Shown one piece after another: positions 12,625 through 59,508 of a DNA stretch of 64,000 nucleotides (the stretch's first letter is position 1; every line of letters starts with the position of its first letter). The stretch lies in the IMG/VR virus record IMGVR_UViG_3300035698_009139. One strand, 5' to 3'. This DNA comes from a virus. The position numbers and the translations under genes were made by a program. Under the pieces are notes generated by a model that was given only the letters and a program-made list of their open reading frames with translations, was not told the origin of the DNA and did no database searches.

Positions 12625-14734
12625 ATGACCGGTTATCTCGGCGATTTTGCAATAAATTCAAACGTGTACATGTCATTCAGTACGTTTGCCAACACTGGTG
12701 GCTCAGCTACAGCCACTGGCTTCGCCAACACTGACGTCCTGGTATTTAAAAATGGGTCGTCCACATCAAAAGTATCATCTAACAGCTGCTTTGTTGTCAC
12801 AGACTTCAGCAGCCAAACTGGCCTACATCACGTAACAATCGATACATCTGACAATTCCGGTGATGTAGGGTTCTACGGTGCTAGTGGAGATTACCAGGTA
12901 GCTGTCGCTGATATAACAGTGGCTGGTGAGACTGTTCGAACATGGCTCGGCCAATTTTCTCTACAGAACAGATATGCTCCCGCTGCAACGGTTTCTGGGA
13001 TCGTTCAGGCCAATGTGACGCATGTTAATGGCGGCGCTGTAGCTAGTGTGATAGATTTCAGAGCTAACACATCGACGCTGGCTTTAGCCTCAGCTGTTTC
13101 TGGATTGAATAACATATCAACCGCAGACGTACTTACTCAGGCAAATGCTGTCATCCAGTTTTACGACGGGCCAACCAAAGCAGAATTGGACTCTGGGTTC
13201 TCTGGATTGAATAACATATCAGCTGCAGACGTACTTACTCAGGCAAATGCAGCCATTACCTTCTATGATGGTCTGATTGCGGCAGACCTGCCAACCAACT
13301 TCAGCGTGCTAGACATCAACGGTCAGGGTCGCGTGGTTGCAAACGTTGCAGCTATCGGCACAAATGATGTTACCACGCCTAATGATTTTAAAGCTGATGT
13401 AACGGGAATTGCTACACCAGCCGATGTGCTTGTTCAGGCAAACGCCGCCCTGCAGACATATGATGCCCCCACTAAAGCTGAGCTTGATACTGGTTTCAGC
13501 AATCAAAATGATGTATCAGTTGCGGACATTTTAACACAATCTAATGCTGCTATAGTATTTTATAATGGCCTAGTCGCGGCAGACCTGCCAACGAACTTCA
13601 GCGCACTATCAATCAACGGCCAGGGCCGGGTTGCATCGAACGTGGTGTCTGTTGGTACAAATGATGTATCTACACCAGATGATTTCAAATCCGGCGGTGG
13701 GGTAGTGACAGCTAATATAGCATTCGTTAACGGATCAGCAGTAACGGGAGTCGCTGATTTCAAAGCTGATGTTTGGAGTTGCAACTCCAGCAGATGTTCT
13801 CACTCAGGCCAATGCAGCTATATCGTTCTATGATGGCCTGGTTGCAGCTGATTTGCCAACGAACTTCAGCGCACTATCAATCAACGGCCAGGGTCGCGTA
13901 GTTGCAAACGTTGCATCAATCGGCACAAATGCTGTTACAACACCGAACGATTTCAAAGCAGATGTTTCTGGTGTCGTAACCCCAGCAGATATTCTTGCAC
14001 AGGCAAACGCCGCTCTTCAAGCATACGATGCACCTACTAAAGCCGAACTTGACACTGGTTTCAGTAACCTGAATGATGTGTCGGCCGCTGATATTCTGAC
14101 ACAAGCAAACGCCGCTATCACGTTCTATGATGGCTTGGTTGCAGCTGATTTGCCAACACACTTCAGTGCTTTAGCAATCAATGGTCAGGGCCGCGTAGTT
14201 GCAAATGTAGCGTCCATCGGCACAAATGCTGTCACGACACCAGATGATTTCAAAGCTGATGTTTCTGGAGTAGCCACCCCAGCTAATGTGCTCATCCAAG
14301 CGAATGCGGCGCTACAATCATATGACGCCCCAACCAAGGCTGAGTTGGACACCGGATTTAGCAGTCTAAATGATGTGTCCGCGGCCGATATCCTAGTGCA
14401 GTCGAATGCAGCTATTACCTTCTATGATGGGCTAGTTGCAGCTGATTTGCCAACAAACTTCAATGCTCTGACAATTTCTGTTGGCGGCACAGTGGATGCA
14501 TCGATCAGTGATATTCAGGCTAACTCGATTGCAAATACTGTTGTGGATAACATCAACGTGACGGGTGTCAATTTGACAACCCAACAACAGGCTAATTTGG
14601 CTGCAGATGTCGCAGCTAATATTTCTTCCAATATTGTTGCATCTGTGTCTGTAAATGATCGCATCCAGATCGCTAACACAATATTGAACGACAGCAGAAG
14701 CTTGACGGTCGGCAAATTCCTATCGTTTAGCTAA
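12625..14734 (+). pseudogene. Repeat-containing virion protein, split by a 2-nt deletion at ~13774 (ORFs 12625-13833 and 13769-14734 are one gene)
   Basis: The same ~100-aa repeat continues across the frame change; GATGTTTGGAGTT at 13768 versus GATGTTTCTGGAGTA in the repeat copy at 14258. Confidence 0.75.
13100..14470 (+). repeat. ~300-bp (100-aa) degenerate tandem repeat
   Basis: Recurring units QANAAITFYDGLVAADLPTNF...INGQGRVVANVASIGTN.VTTP.DFKADV...YDAPTKAELDTGFS; 300-nt period from 13801 to 14460. Confidence 0.9.
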
Positions 14735-17793: not shown

Positions 17794-17801
17794 TATAAAT
17801 A
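17794..17801 (+). promoter_or_regulatory. T4-type late promoter (gp23)
   Basis: TATAAATA upstream of gp23. Confidence 0.88.
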
Positions 17802-17837: not shown

Positions 17838-19226
17838 ATGGACATGAATAAGAGTCATCTAGAGCAGCTACAGGAAAAGTGGGACGGCGTTATCAATCAC
17901 GATGGCCTTCCTTCAATCGCCGACGGTCACCGCCGTTCAGTTTTGGCAACCCTTCTGGAAAACCAGGAATTGGATGCCCGTCAGCAAGCCGCTGGTTCAG
18001 GTGGATATGGCGCTCCAACGCTTTTGGGTGAGTCTTCACCTACAAATGCCATGGGTGCTTCTAGCTCCACAGCAGGCGACGGCGCAGTAGACATCTTCGA
18101 CCCCGTACTGATTTCACTTGTACGTCGTTCGATGCCTAACCTTGTTGCTTATGACCTTTGTGGCGTACAGCCAATGACAGGTCCAACCGGTCTTATCTTT
18201 GCCCTTCGTTCACGTTATACGAACCAGGCAGGAGCCGAAGCACTGTTCAACGAAGCCAATACTTCGTTTGCATCATCTGCTGCAGGCAACACAGCATCGA
18301 TTGGTGCTCGTGACGAAATCGGTACAAACGTTGGCCAGGTTGGTAATGATCCAACGGCACGCGCATTTGCTAACGGTTATTCAGTAGAACACGGCATGAC
18401 TACAGCTCAGGCTGAAGCACTTGGCGATGTGACAACGAATGGCTTCCAGGAAATGGCATTCAGCGTAGAGAAGGTTGCTGTAACAGCAGTATCCAAGGCT
18501 CTAAAGGCTGAGTACACGATGGAACTTGCACAGGACTTGAAAGCAGTTCACGGTCTTGACGCAGAGACAGAGCTTGCCAATATCCTTTCTGCTGAAATTC
18601 TTGCAGAAATCAACCGCGAAGTTGTTCGTACGATCAACTACACGGCTACAGCAGGCGCCCAGGAAAATGTAACAACGGCCGGCACGTTCGACCTTGATAC
18701 AGATTCGAACGGTCGTTGGATGGTAGAGCGCTTCAAGGGTCTTATCTTCCAGCTAGAGCGTGAATGTAACGCCATTGCCAAGGCGACCCGTCGAGGCAAG
18801 GGCAATGTGATGATCGTTGGTTCGGACGTCGCATCAGCACTTCACCTAGCAGGTGTTCTGGATTATACTCCAGCCCTAAACAACAACCTTCAGGTTGACG
18901 ACACAGGTAACACATTCGCTGGTGTTATGAATGGTCGCATTCGCGTTTACATCGATCCGTACTTCGCAAGTGCTTCAGGCAAGCAGTATGCAACACTTGG
19001 TTATAAGGGGTCTTCAGCCTTCGACGCCGGATTGTTCTACTGCCCTTACGTACCTCTACAGATGGTACGTGCCGTTGGCGAGAATACGTTCCAGCCAAAA
19101 ATCGGCTTCAAGACGCGATATGGCATCATCGCCAATCCTTTCGCAACGTCAGCAGCCGACGGAACGATCAGCTTCAACAACAAGAACGTTTATTACCGCT
19201 TCATGCAGATTTCGAACTTGATGTAA
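17838..19226 (+). CDS. gp23: Major capsid protein gp23
   Basis: LLENQE, LVRRSMPNLVAYDLCGVQPMTGPTGLIFALR, KALKAEYTMELAQDLKAVHGLDAE, TRRGKGN, FQPKIGFKTRYG. Confidence 0.98.
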   Translation: MDMNKSHLEQLQEKWDGVINHDGLPSIADGHRRSVLATLLENQELDARQQAAGSGGYGAPTLLGESSPTNAMGASSSTAGDGAVDIFDPVLISLVRRSMPNLVAYDLCGVQPMTGPTGLIFALRSRYTNQAGAEALFNEANTSFASSAAGNTASIGARDEIGTNVGQVGNDPTARAFANGYSVEHGMTTAQAEALGDVTTNGFQEMAFSVEKVAVTAVSKALKAEYTMELAQDLKAVHGLDAETELANILSAEILAEINREVVRTINYTATAGAQENVTTAGTFDLDTDSNGRWMVERFKGLIFQLERECNAIAKATRRGKGNVMIVGSDVASALHLAGVLDYTPALNNNLQVDDTGNTFAGVMNGRIRVYIDPYFASASGKQYATLGYKGSSAFDAGLFYCPYVPLQMVRAVGENTFQPKIGFKTRYGIIANPFATSAADGTISFNNKNVYYRFMQISNLM

Positions 19227-51441: not shown

Positions 51442-51894
51442 GTTTTTCGCTCATATTTATTCTCTGTGTGCGGTCGCTGTGGTATTAGCGTCGGTGTTAG
51501 TGGGAACGTATTGGGGCACATACGGCTCTAGAGAAATGTTTCAGGTTAATACTACTGAGATAGTAGAGATGACGCCTAATAAATTGGTTATCGATCGCAC
51601 CATAAAGAAGAGCATGATATGCCCAGTGGTATCCATTGATCATTATTTGATGTTTCCTGGCGGGGCCACACTGGGACTCAGAAAAGCCAGCATCATGCTG
51701 ATTACAAAACTAATACGCTGGTAACAATCAGATTTGTATTTGCTCTCCCACCTCAAGTTATAGACGTGTCGGACAAATATGGCCACCGAGTGAAGTTGGC
51801 ATACAGCTGCAACCCCTTCCACCAGCCGGTGTATACGGTTGATTCTAATATTGTTTCAGTGCCACACAAGAAGTTGTCTACCCTTTCAAAATAG
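51434..51894 (+). pseudogene. Signal-anchored periplasmic protein, frameshifted between 51640 and 51722
   Basis: The N-terminal TM ORF stops at 51724; the -1 frame is open 51640-51894 (HHADYKTNTLVTIRFVFALP...LAYSCNPFHQP) and fills the gap to the primase promoter. Confidence 0.55.
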
Positions 51895-51902
51895 CGTATA
51901 AT
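51874..51902 (+). promoter_or_regulatory. Sigma70-type promoter (primase operon)
   Basis: TTGTCT-17 nt-TATAAT. Confidence 0.72.
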
Positions 51903-55964: not shown

Positions 55965-56547
55965 AATTATTTGGCATCAAAACCCGCTGAGATCAGAAGT
56001 GCTTCTGAACGACAACGACAAGCAGTTGCTCTGGCATAAAGTTAAGATCGAGGAATTGCTGAATGGCATGTGCGGGGCTCACATGTATATACAAGATGCC
56101 CTCAAATCACGTTGGTGGGTACCTGCAGGTATCATAAAGAAGGCCCTCAAAGAGCTGGATTATACTGATGCGATCGATGCCGAAGTTGATCGAATGACAG
56201 AAGTGTGCATCCAAGACTTGAGGGGATGGCATATGGGAGATTGCACTTGTTTCGCAAACAGCTGTGCAAAGTGTCATGCCGAACACATGCTAGGAATTGA
56301 CACCATTAAAGGCTTAGGGAAACATGCTGGGTCCTATGTGTCGTCAGCATTCGACAGCACTGTGCTTGGCGCCCCTGAGCGTACGACTGCTGAGGCGATC
56401 GACGTGTTGATAAATCGAGACGACTCCGAGAAAACGGACACATGGTCTAATTATTCTGATGAGCAATGGGATAAATTAGTTGCCCGATGGAACGGGGAAC
56501 GCAAAGAGGCAATTAAATGGTTAAAGGTCTATCAAGCAAATCTTTAG
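55957..56547 (+). CDS. Hypothetical protein with a His/Cys cluster
   Basis: HMGDCTCFANSCAKCHAE. Confidence 0.65.
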   Translation: MVEIIWHQNPLRSEVLLNDNDKQLLWHKVKIEELLNGMCGAHMYIQDALKSRWWVPAGIIKKALKELDYTDAIDAEVDRMTEVCIQDLRGWHMGDCTCFANSCAKCHAEHMLGIDTIKGLGKHAGSYVSSAFDSTVLGAPERTTAEAIDVLINRDDSEKTDTWSNYSDEQWDKLVARWNGERKEAIKWLKVYQANL

Positions 56548-56549
56548 TA

Positions 56550-56777
56550 ATGCCCGTGTGTGACACTAAACGTCACTTGGTGTGCTACCCATACAATAAA
56601 CAAAACCTGCATTTAATGGCCAAGGTTATGGGCATAGGCCGACACTGGTTTCACAAAGACCACTATGATATACCGAAAAGACGGCGACCAGAAATAGAAT
56701 CTAAATGCTTCAAGGTGAGTAGCAAAGAGATCGTACAAATAATAAAAGGCGGAGAGCTAGAATGGCTAAAGATCTAA
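56550..56777 (+). CDS. DUF4031-like small protein
   Basis: LHLMAKVMGIGRHWFHKDHYDIPKRRR. Confidence 0.6.
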   Translation: MPVCDTKRHLVCYPYNKQNLHLMAKVMGIGRHWFHKDHYDIPKRRRPEIESKCFKVSSKEIVQIIKGGELEWLKI

Positions 56778-57733
56778 AACTAACAGACGAACGCAATTAC
56801 TTTAAGCCATTCCATTATCCTTGGGCGTACGATGCATGGTTAATGCACGAGCAAAGTCACTGGTTGCACACGGAAGTTCCTATGCTGGATGACGTCAAAG
56901 ACTGGCGCCTGCGTCTGTCAGATGCTGAGAAGCATTTCCTAACTCAGATCTTCCGCTTCTTCACTCAGGGTGATATTGACGTAGCTGATGGGTACGTCAA
57001 TAATTTTCTGCCGTACTTCCCGCAGCCAGAAGTCCGTATGATGCTCGTAGGGTTCGCTGCACGAGAAGCTCTGCATATTGCTGCATACAGCCACCTAATC
57101 GAAACATTGGGAATGCCAGAAAGCACGTACAGTGAGTTCTCCGAATACAAGGAGATGCAGAACAAGCACGATTACATTCAGAAGCTAAGTGGTAAGAGCG
57201 CCAAGAATGTGGCGCAACAGATTGCAGCGTTCTCAGCATTCACAGAAGGGATGCAACTGTTCAGCTCATTCATCATGCTGCTGAATTTTCCTCGCCACGG
57301 CAAGATGAAGGGTATGGGGCAAATCATCACTTGGTCAATCGTTGATGAGACGATGCACGCCGAGTCAATGATCAAGCTGTTCCGAACATTCATTGAAGAG
57401 AATAAAGATATTTGGAACGACGAGCTGAAAGGCGAGATCTACTCCATTGCAGAGAAAATGGTCAGCCTGGAAGACGAGTTCATCGACCTAGCATTCAAGA
57501 TGGGGTCGGTGGAGAATCTGACGGCCGATGAAGTCAAGAAGTACATCAGGTACATCGCCGACCGTCGATTGATTTCACTGGGGATGAAAGGCATCTTCCA
57601 CGTAAGAACGAACCCGTTGCCATGGGTTGAAACAATGATTAATGCACCCACGCATACGAACTTCTTTGAGAACAGGGCAACGGATTATGCTAAGGGTGCG
57701 TTGGAAGGTGACTGGGGAGAGGTGTGGGCGTAA
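56762..57733 (+). CDS. nrdB: Ribonucleotide reductase class Ia beta subunit
   Basis: FFTQGD, REALH..AY (radical Tyr), EGMQLFSSF, DETMH, YIADRRL, NFFENRATDY. Confidence 0.96.
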   Translation: MAKDLKLTDERNYFKPFHYPWAYDAWLMHEQSHWLHTEVPMLDDVKDWRLRLSDAEKHFLTQIFRFFTQGDIDVADGYVNNFLPYFPQPEVRMMLVGFAAREALHIAAYSHLIETLGMPESTYSEFSEYKEMQNKHDYIQKLSGKSAKNVAQQIAAFSAFTEGMQLFSSFIMLLNFPRHGKMKGMGQIITWSIVDETMHAESMIKLFRTFIEENKDIWNDELKGEIYSIAEKMVSLEDEFIDLAFKMGSVENLTADEVKKYIRYIADRRLISLGMKGIFHVRTNPLPWVETMINAPTHTNFFENRATDYAKGALEGDWGEVWA

Positions 57734-57978
57734 GACATTTTGTAAAGTGGCCGCTTAGATTATTCGTTTGGAAGTGGTCTGCTCTTCTTTTAAAACTAGC
57801 AGGGTTCCCTTCTCTTTTAACTAGATATAAAATTGCGAAGGTGCGGAGAGATTTCATGCGCGGACTGCGCAGAGTGTATCCCGGCCTGGTTGCTGAAGAA
57901 TTGATAGGTGTTCAACCAATGACAAAGGATGCCGGCCAAATATTTACAATGAGGGTTAAAAACAATGTACGTGATTAA
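57724..57978 (+). CDS. Small protein carrying a gp23 Gol-region homologue
   Basis: LRRVYPGLVAEELIGVQPMTKDAGQIFTMR vs gp23 VRRSMPNLVAYDLCGVQPMTGPTGLIFALR; alternative start ATG 57856 with SD GGAGA. Confidence 0.7.
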   Translation: MGVRHFVKWPLRLFVWKWSALLLKLAGFPSLLTRYKIAKVRRDFMRGLRRVYPGLVAEELIGVQPMTKDAGQIFTMRVKNNVRD

Positions 57979-58492
57979 TATGTTCGGCGGACCGGGCAGC
58001 GGCAAGAGTACAACTGCTGCAGGCCTGTTCCATTTGATGAAGTTGAAGAAATATAATGTTGAGCTAGTAACAGAGTACGCAAAAGATTTGACGTACGAAG
58101 GCCGGTTCACTACACTGAAAAATCAGCTATATGTAACAGGGTGTCAGTTCCAGCGAATGGAGCGGATGAGAGATAAGGTTGATTTCTTAATCACTGATAG
58201 TCCGATGTTGTTTGGCTTGATGTATGCCCCACCAGAATACCCACAATCATTCCGGAACATGGTCGTCGACTTTCACAATATGTTCAACAACATCAATGTG
58301 ATGATAGGCCGGTCTAAGGAGTACACGCCACTTGGCCGAAACCACAATGAAGAGCAAGCTCGGTGGTTAGACAAAGAATGCTTAGAAATACTCCACCATA
58401 AGAAAATCAGGCCCGGCAACTACATCAAGGTGGATGGAGATCCCGACGCGGCCGCAAATATCCTGAAAGCAGTTGAGGCGAAGAAACTATGA
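57965..58492 (+). CDS. P-loop NTPase / nucleotide kinase (NadR/AAA_28-like)
   Basis: INMFGGPGSGKSTT, ELVTEYAK, ITDSP, GRNH. Confidence 0.75.
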   Translation: MYVINMFGGPGSGKSTTAAGLFHLMKLKKYNVELVTEYAKDLTYEGRFTTLKNQLYVTGCQFQRMERMRDKVDFLITDSPMLFGLMYAPPEYPQSFRNMVVDFHNMFNNINVMIGRSKEYTPLGRNHNEEQARWLDKECLEILHHKKIRPGNYIKVDGDPDAAANILKAVEAKKL

Positions 58493-59001
58493 ACAAGTGG
58501 GACCGCCGATATCTTAGCTTGGCCCTATTCGTCAGCACTTGGTCGAAAGATCCAAGTACTCAAACTGGTGCAGTAATTATCCGACCAGACAATAGTATTG
58601 CATCTATCGGGTTCAATGGATTCCCTCGCGGCGAAAATGACGACCCTGAGCTGTATTTGGACAGAGATTATAAATACAAAAACATCATCCATGCCGAGAT
58701 CAACGCCATAGGGAACGCTAATGAAGATGTTGATGGATACACATTGTATCAGTGGCCCGGATACAGTTGCTCGGATTGCGCAACTGTTATTAGAGATCAT
58801 GGCCTTGCCCGTGTGGTTAATTTTGAACCGACAAAAGATTTTATCGACAGGTGGGGCGAAGAGTTTGACAGGGCGTCAGTAATATTCAAAGTCAGTCGCA
58901 TCCAAGTTGATTTGATAGAGCGAACTCTTCTGTTCAATATGCTGGAATCCGTAACACTTAGCATGCAACAATTGACGAAGACGGCGATCAAGTACATGTA
59001 A
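58489..59001 (+). CDS. cd: dCMP deaminase
   Basis: WSKDPSTQTGAVI, GFNGFPRG, HAEINA, SCSDCA. Confidence 0.9.
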   Translation: MNKWDRRYLSLALFVSTWSKDPSTQTGAVIIRPDNSIASIGFNGFPRGENDDPELYLDRDYKYKNIIHAEINAIGNANEDVDGYTLYQWPGYSCSDCATVIRDHGLARVVNFEPTKDFIDRWGEEFDRASVIFKVSRIQVDLIERTLLFNMLESVTLSMQQLTKTAIKYM

Positions 59002-59061
59002 AGAATCATCCTATTTGCCATAATTACCCATAGCAGGGAATTAGAATGATAGGATGCACTA

Positions 59062-59508
59062 GTGAGTTACGACAACCCTTGGACGTTTAATGGACAACTT
59101 TTTGACACAGATCAGATCAACAAATCCGAAGGATTCGTTTATATGGTCATCAACCAGCAGACGGGCCAAAAATACATCGGGCGAAAATACTTCTTTGAAA
59201 TACGAAAGGTTCGTGGTAAGCTACGACGTCAACGTAGAGAAAGCAATTGGAAATCTTACTACGGCTCAAGTGAACGCATTAAAGCTGATATCGAAGAGAT
59301 TGGACGAGAAGCTTTCTTACGCACTATACTATCCATACACAAGACACGAGGCGACTGCAACTATGCCGAGGTACGAGAACAATTTTCTCACAACGTGTTG
59401 GAATCCGAAGGCTACTACAACGACAACATATCAGGCAAGTGGCATAATAAACCTCTGCATATCATAGAAGGAAGACGTATATCTAATGGATCAATCTTCA
59501 TTACCTGA
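59062..59508 (+). CDS. GIY-YIG family endonuclease (endonuclease II/DenA-like)
   Basis: GFVYMVIN...KYIGRKYF, ESNWKSYYGSS, YYNDNISG. Confidence 0.75.
   Translation: MSYDNPWTFNGQLFDTDQINKSEGFVYMVINQQTGQKYIGRKYFFEIRKVRGKLRRQRRESNWKSYYGSSERIKADIEEIGREAFLRTILSIHKTRGDCNYAEVREQFSHNVLESEGYYNDNISGKWHNKPLHIIEGRRISNGSIFIT

Follow-up and report, generated by a model that had tools for sequence, protein, structure and literature searches.

The 64,000-nucleotide stretch of T4-like phage DNA analyzed here (the window) carries, directly behind the ribonucleotide reductase gene nrdB, a small gene with a segment homologous to the 'Gol' segment in the N-terminal arm of gp23, the major capsid protein. On the sequence evidence, the best reading is that this mini-gene is a real, selected small gene and not debris. 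As anatomy and as a recurrent design, in which the segment is detached from the capsid protein, the finding is firm. The full-text literature that we searched contained no description of detached Gol-segment genes. The features discussed below are listed in Table 1.

Table 1. Positions of the mini-gene, its parts and the genes and motifs to which it is compared (window coordinates).
Feature	Position	Strand	Remarks
Mini-gene, long form	57724..57978	+	GTG start, 84 aa, TAA stop (57976-57978)
Mini-gene, short form	57856..57978	+	ATG, 40 aa, nearly the Gol-like module alone
Shine-Dalgarno-like GGAGA	57845..57849	+	7 nt before ATG 57856
Gol-like module proper	57850..57957	+	ORF residues 43-78, corresponding to T4 gp23 94-129
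N-terminal extension or untranslated spacer, 122 nt	57734..57855	+	If translated: basic, hydrophobic, W-rich
nrdB, ribonucleotide reductase small subunit	56762..57733	+	Directly upstream of the mini-gene
P-loop kinase-like gene (AAA_28; PHROG 2107 'thymidylate kinase')	57965..58492	+	Directly downstream of the mini-gene
dCMP deaminase	58489..59001	+	
Best sigma-70-like match, TTGTCT-17-TATAAT	51874..51902	+	In the 184-nt gap that opens the operon; consensus match only
Perfect T4-type late promoter TATAAATA	17794..17801	+	Before gp23
Window gp23, intact major capsid protein	17838..19226	+	462 aa; PF07068 profile 2-376
Gol-equivalent segment of window gp23	about 18120-18215	+	BLASTP

The T4-like window has a G+C content of 46%, and 71 of its 76 long ORFs lie on the + strand. 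Its gp23 is 66% identical to gp23 of Stenotrophomonas phage DLP_6 and 60-62% identical to the proteins of Methylophilales, Pelagibacter, and cyanobacterial T4-like phages. The stretch is present in salt-lake metagenome runs. Elsewhere in the window, two ORFs that overlap in different frames (12625-13833 and 13769-14734) divide between them a fibre-like coding region rich in repeats; they have in common a ~60-aa repeat (...A-D-V-L-T-Q-A-N-A-A-I-x-F-Y-D-G...). This split could reflect a frameshift, either programmed or due to an assembly error, or the presence of two genes.

The initial annotation had placed a stand-alone ORF behind nrdB and had aligned its C-terminal half to gp23 without gaps. 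The ORF lies exactly where it had been described, and BLASTP aligned its residues 48-79 to residues 95-126 of the window gp23 without a gap (17 of 32 identical, 38.1 bits, E 6e-9). The Pfam family Gp23 (PF07068) matched ORF residues 37-80 with 36.9 bits (E 3.6e-9), above its gathering cut-off of 24.4 bits, covering profile positions 1-44 of 376. Since the capsid body, i.e., most of the 376 profile positions, is absent from a product of at most 84 residues, the mini-gene does not encode a capsid protein; a separate and intact capsid gene is present in the same window. NCBIfam contained no family matched by the mini-ORF. A phmmer comparison with PDB sequences aligned the module to T4 gp23 residue for residue, and the aligned T4 region begins with the 29-residue Gol sequence given in the initial annotation. 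By sequence, the mini-ORF thus contains the equivalent of Gol (T4 gp23 ~94-122). A back-translated pattern coding for GVQPM occurs twice in the 64 kb, once in gp23 and once in the mini-gene, with 0.02 occurrences expected by chance. An AlphaFold2 model of the product, built on an 18-row alignment, is all helical and weak (pLDDT 65, pTM 0.31), and matches in the ESM Atlas are leads at a score of 0.8.

Two translation starts can be proposed. The reading frame is open on the + strand from 57712 to 57978 and thus opens only 12 nt before the GTG. The 84-aa start is favored by this late opening, by an SD-like GGAG 4 nt upstream of GTG 57724, by the gene finders behind the protein databases, which call this version, and by the unbroken overlaps of the operon: the GTG overlaps the nrdB TAA by 10 nt, and the mini-gene TAA overlaps the ATG (57965) of the downstream kinase-like gene by 14 nt. 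The 40-aa start is favored by an ATG with a well-spaced GGAGA, both found where they had been predicted, and by the odd W-rich composition of the N-terminal 44 residues; the hydrophobic and basic character ascribed to the N-terminus of the longer form is indeed seen if the extension is translated. Both forms may be made. The region 57725-57870 has no stable RNA structure, with the 122 nt between the two starts being unstructured (z +1.9), and these 122 nt show no homology to the post-nrdB spacers of relatives. Between nrdB and the internal ATG lies a direct repeat, TCTTTTAA(AA)CTAG, with copies at 57786-57799 and 57813-57824 that are 27 nt apart; the rest of the window has no further copy, and 0.01 occurrences are expected by chance. 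We also considered a -1 frameshift fusing nrdB to the mini-gene and dropped it, as reading by eye revealed no slippery site in 57712-57733.

The mini-gene copy is old. Apart from the GVQPM core, its DNA shows only weak resemblance to that of the gp23 segment. The mini-peptide scored 43.9 bits against P0023, an N-terminal fragment of a foreign capsid protein, and reached 45.8-47.4 bits against other detached copies (P0008, P0125, and P0002), compared to 38.1 bits against the gp23 of its own phage; these differences are small and rest on about 32-36 residues, so that the slight closeness to foreign capsids is a hint only. In front of VQPM, the mini-peptide has E-L-I-G, as do foreign and jumbo-phage capsids and most detached copies, whereas its own gp23 has D-L-C-G. 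Residues R49, P53, A57, G62, V63, Q64, P65, and M66, which represent invariant or near-invariant columns across capsids and detached copies, are all intact. We therefore rejected a recent self-copy of gp23, given the diverged DNA and the slightly higher scores of foreign capsids and detached copies.

The mini-gene is part of a nearly gapless operon of nucleotide-metabolism genes. Following a 184-nt gap, the gene order is a 345-aa ORF, ThyX, nrdA, two ORFs, DUF4031, nrdB, mini-gene, kinase-like gene, dCMP deaminase, and onward, and starts overlap preceding stops from the 55383 ORF through dCMP deaminase. The 86-aa DUF4031 protein (56517-56777) overlaps both the preceding ORF and the nrdB start. 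Between nrdB and the mini-gene we detected no TATAAATA, no sigma-70 match, and no terminator, and the wider region 57500-58100 contains neither a sigma-70 promoter nor a terminator. The late motif TATAAATA occurs 11 times in exact form in the window (2990, 12594, 14751, 16539, 16637, 17794, 19280, 43293, 44489, 47878, and 58669), mostly just upstream of structural genes; the one at 58669 is internal to the gene for dCMP deaminase. A TATAAAAT at 57826 was rejected as a late promoter because it is not the late motif of this phage. Co-transcription with the nucleotide-metabolism genes, deduced from consensus motifs and T4 biology, suggests early or middle expression, and the mini-gene product is thus probably made before gp23.

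Close relatives do not share the gene. None of the 80 IMG/VR loci with an nrdB that is 77-82% identical (L019-L098) contains a Gol-like ORF in any frame, and no Gol-like ORF was found in 18 loci where the neighboring kinase-like gene is present with an identity of at most 49%. Most of the 80 nrdB loci continue, after a gap of ~50 nt to nearly 2 kb (mostly ~200 nt), with a homologue of the window ORF 59062-59508, a member of PHROG 447 with homing-endonuclease-like PHROG matches; in a few, its place is taken by a dCMP deaminase or by a small ORF resembling a zinc ribbon. The homology of the window to its nrdB relatives ends with the stop codon of nrdB. What follows nrdB varies from relative to relative, and the mini-gene, the kinase-like gene, and the dCMP deaminase gene (57734-59061, 1.3 kb) are extra, being absent from most of them. 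Scans of IMG/VR yielded no close relatives of the mini-ORF. Degenerate-pattern scans for P0124 and for GVQPMTKD found nothing in IMG/VR and GTDB genomes, and P0125 was absent from GTDB genomes. In a metagenome scan, for which the GVQPM pattern was saturating, the locus L180 was the sole relative among the matches listed. The only other copies of the mini-ORF are identical to it and stem from a single salt-lake sampling year: one is on a JGI contig, and the others are in three salt-lake runs, whose contigs cover the mini-ORF with zero differences.

At the family level, the picture is different. The initial annotation had asked whether the ORF is conserved independently of the capsid gene; it is not among close syntenic relatives, as described for the 80 loci, but detached copies recur in more distant phages, and a search for small independent ORFs with the motif was positive in both cultured and uncultured phages. 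An exhaustive HMMER search of 1.84 billion protein representatives retrieved short proteins in which the module is joined to non-capsid N-termini and which end early (P0004, P0005, P0006/P0125, P0008, P0009/P0124, and P0002). Near-naked module proteins of 67-79 aa were found, one of them on 171 contigs with a longest contig of 522 kb (P0124). The mini-ORF fits the near-naked class (P0124, P0125, P0004, and P0008), whose members are under about 110 aa and have the module as their only recognizable element. It continues for 18 residues after GVQPM, compared to 21-33 residues in these four, and 9 of 11 tabulated module-bearing proteins end 18-33 residues after GVQPM. Pfam Gp23 matches are limited to profile positions 3-48 in the near-naked proteins and confined to about 2-59 in the detached copies, all of which keep P..L.A.....VQPM. 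P0005 (102 aa, on a Logan contig of 1405 bp) starts with what appears by eye to be a Tat-like leader, K-R-R-N-F-L-T-G-L-F-G-G-L-V-A-A-S; if this leader is real, the P0005 subfamily would miss cytoplasmic EF-Tu.

Among cultured phages, tblastn detected a family of 128-140 aa proteins, PHROG 12830, each encoded far from the real capsid gene. Carriers include the Aeromonas phages PX29, Aeh1, phiAS5, Ah1, and others, the Citrobacter phages Merlin, Moon, and CF1, and Vibrio phage D479; Cronobacter phage S13 matches this family over the N-terminal domain only (residues 1-88). The gene lies within a tRNA cluster in PX29 (CL89_gp308, NC_023688), Aeh1 (Aeh1p187, NC_005260), and D479 (0385, OZ195776), and between motA/arn and asiA in Merlin (gp284, NC_028857; loci L179 and L182-L184 for the four phages). 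PHROG 12830 proteins are 26-35% identical to the mini-ORF, with L-x-A and VQPM invariant in the alignment, and the Merlin module terminates right after VQPM. The name 'major head protein' given to them by RefSeq and the depositors is a mislabel, as the Pfam Gp23 match spans only ~30-40 residues; the annotators of Aeh1 had remarked on Aeh1p187 that it is "similar to T4 gp23".

Uncultured phages provided further arrangements. As verified on the DNA, L180 carries a 125-aa ORF between RNA ligase and dUTPase that has T-K-D after GVQPM, as in the window. The IMG/VR phage contigs L185, L187, L188, and L189 encode proteins of 125-162 aa in which the module stands at the N-terminus, before a further small domain whose end reads ...F-x-L-R-W. 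This domain is present in tandem paralogues (L185 673-1271, L187 4637-5357, L188 4669-5330, and L189 4580-5399), and only the downstream copy of each pair has the Gol module at its N-terminus, the adjoining paralogue being without it. The contexts of the detached copies are early or non-structural. Several candidates were discarded: P0030 aligns over its full length to 121Q-type capsids and is probably a cut capsid gene, the match in RsoM2USA is the unannotated capsid gene of that phage, and several proteins of 78-154 aa resemble the products of frameshifted capsid genes. A detached gene is missing from most T4-like phages, T4 among them, with tblastn giving essentially one match per record, i.e., the capsid gene.

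What might such a gene do? We tentatively favor, as plausible though short of probable, a selected and early-made mimic of the capsid segment that would bind the host factor reading this segment, with EF-Tu as the first candidate. A free copy of the gp23 N-arm segment would be made early from the nucleotide-metabolism operon and would occupy the site on the host partner that normally reads the nascent or unassembled gp23 segment. Having no effector domain, the mini-protein would act by occupancy or binding alone. EF-Tu binding is the most likely molecular activity since EF-Tu is the only partner demonstrated biochemically for the T4 segment. The most likely biological use would be to forestall host systems that recognize the capsid segment itself or its pairing with EF-Tu in gp23, to compete with such systems, or to tune EF-Tu. 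The more specific proposal that early detached copies disarm or prematurely exhaust host sensors of an immutable capsid segment, presented alone or on EF-Tu, we regard as doubtful; if true, it would represent a counter-defense in which the phage imitates the very trigger by which it is sensed, with the window copy as a minimal form in which the peptide is the whole effector. A decoy role is conceivable, but the simple anti-Lit decoy considered in the initial annotation is disfavored because free T4 Gol activates Lit rather than blocking it, and for the same reason a free copy would do harm in any host with a Lit-like sensor. The great abundance of EF-Tu, which precludes one-for-one blocking, counts against a simple version of the mimic. 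The absence of the gene from the 80 nrdB-syntenic loci counts against the favored reading as well. The apparent Tat-like leader of P0005 and the Merlin module that ends after VQPM argue for a partner other than EF-Tu.

Alternatively, the peptide may help the capsid to fold or assemble. The segment could engage GroEL and the phage co-chaperonin, or the N-arm groove on a neighboring gp23, and in an assembly version it would prime, pace or cap the building of heads, or enter proheads as a minor component. This is consistent with work cited in PMC3012670 (Snyder and Tarkowski, 2005), according to which fusion to the T4 gp23 N-terminus strongly directs proteins to GroEL, and with the conservation of the segment, which is the best-conserved part of the capsid protein (PMC3014915); moreover, the residues kept in detached copies are those kept in capsid proteins. 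However, the mini-gene and its relatives reside in early, nucleotide-metabolism, or tRNA regions and not in head-gene clusters, the mini-gene has no late promoter, and most T4-like phages manage without such a gene. Taken together, we consider the folding and assembly versions unlikely.

That the mini-gene is a non-functional remnant or chance ORF appears quite improbable. In this case, illegitimate recombination would have dropped a piece of a capsid gene into a hypervariable slot, where it stays open by luck and is heading for deletion. Its absence from all 80 syntenic relatives, its location in an inserted cassette, and the N-terminal 44 residues, which resemble a translated spacer, would all fit such an origin. 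Yet all invariant residues and the open frame have been kept although the DNA is old and diverged, a proper SD and ATG are present, and the stop overlaps the start of the next gene. Furthermore, the module boundaries recur independently in many phages, and the sets from cultured phages are only 26-35% identical to the mini-ORF yet keep the core. The retention of the same piece with the same boundaries in many unrelated settings makes a decaying fragment unlikely.

Very improbable, finally, is a weapon against co-infecting phages that mimics a foreign capsid type so as to disrupt the folding or assembly of that capsid or to set off a partner system: the module is slightly nearer to the foreign types of capsid protein, in which VQPM is preceded by E-[LI]-[IV]-G (43.9-47.4 bits), than to its own gp23 (D-L-C-G, and 38.1 bits) and the gene sits in a variable slot beside a homing-endonuclease-like gene, but the score differences are small and based on ~32-36 residues, entry into or blocking of a capsid lattice by so short a peptide is doubtful, and no partner toxin is encoded nearby.

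Among phage capsid peptides that a host suicide system can read, the Gol segment is the classic case, and several immune receptors, including one that uses EF-Tu, are now known to respond to capsid proteins. With a gene family in which the segment is expressed alone, and apparently early, there is a handle on the role of the conserved gp23-EF-Tu or gp23-chaperonin contact and on whether mimicry is a means by which phages counter the sensing of their capsids. The window copy, as a nearly bare peptide, is the simplest construct for such work, and the cultured carriers Aeh1, PX29, Merlin, and Moon allow genetics. In practical terms, the 'major head protein' label in RefSeq is wrong for these small proteins.

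Among known systems, PHROG 12830 shares with the mini-ORF a C-terminal Gol-like module (match E 3.6e-5, confined to profile positions 89-127 of 128) but has in addition a conserved N-terminal domain of ~95 residues that the mini-ORF lacks; the N-termini do not align. Modules of PHROG 12830 end a few residues after a T-L-R motif or earlier. Lacking the N-terminal domain, the mini-ORF is not a member of this family, although the design is shared. In GroEL targeting, too, a part of gp23 from its N-terminus serves as a portable signal away from the capsid fold; this activity was established by means of artificial fusion proteins in T4 and E. coli. The literature that we searched reports no phage-encoded capsid-peptide decoy.

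In the Gol/Lit/EF-Tu exclusion of T4, which depends on prophage e14, the same gp23 segment is involved, and it aligns residue for residue to the mini-peptide, with a common core R-R-x-x-P-x-L-[IV]-A-x-[DE]-[LI]-x-G-V-Q-P-M. After GVQPM, the two types part, the mini-peptide having a charged T-K-D-A-G in place of the capsid-type [GS]-P-[TV]-G. The 29-residue Gol region of T4 binds domains II/III of EF-Tu, prefers the GDP form, and inhibits the GTPase, and its binding makes EF-Tu cleavable by Lit (PMC3014915). Expressed by itself, T4 Gol also works in the form of a free peptide (PMC3014915; PMC9712102), and a contact between gp23 and EF-Tu has been suggested for all T4-like phages, Gol being the most conserved part of gp23 (PMC3014915). 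In T4, Gol exists only inside gp23, as a liability that the host exploits, whereas in the window it is also an independent gene in an early-type operon beside an intact gp23. Host immunity reads major capsid proteins in other cases as well: CapRel-SJ46 does so directly and Avs7 with EF-Tu domains II/III, both having been studied with other capsid families (Drexlerviridae, SECphi27). Readers of this type are what a mimic might forestall. Avs7, a capsid-sensing STAND receptor, incorporates EF-Tu through domains II/III, and the authors of that preprint raise the exploitation of a pre-existing contact between capsid and EF-Tu (bioRxiv 10.64898/2026.01.04.697583).
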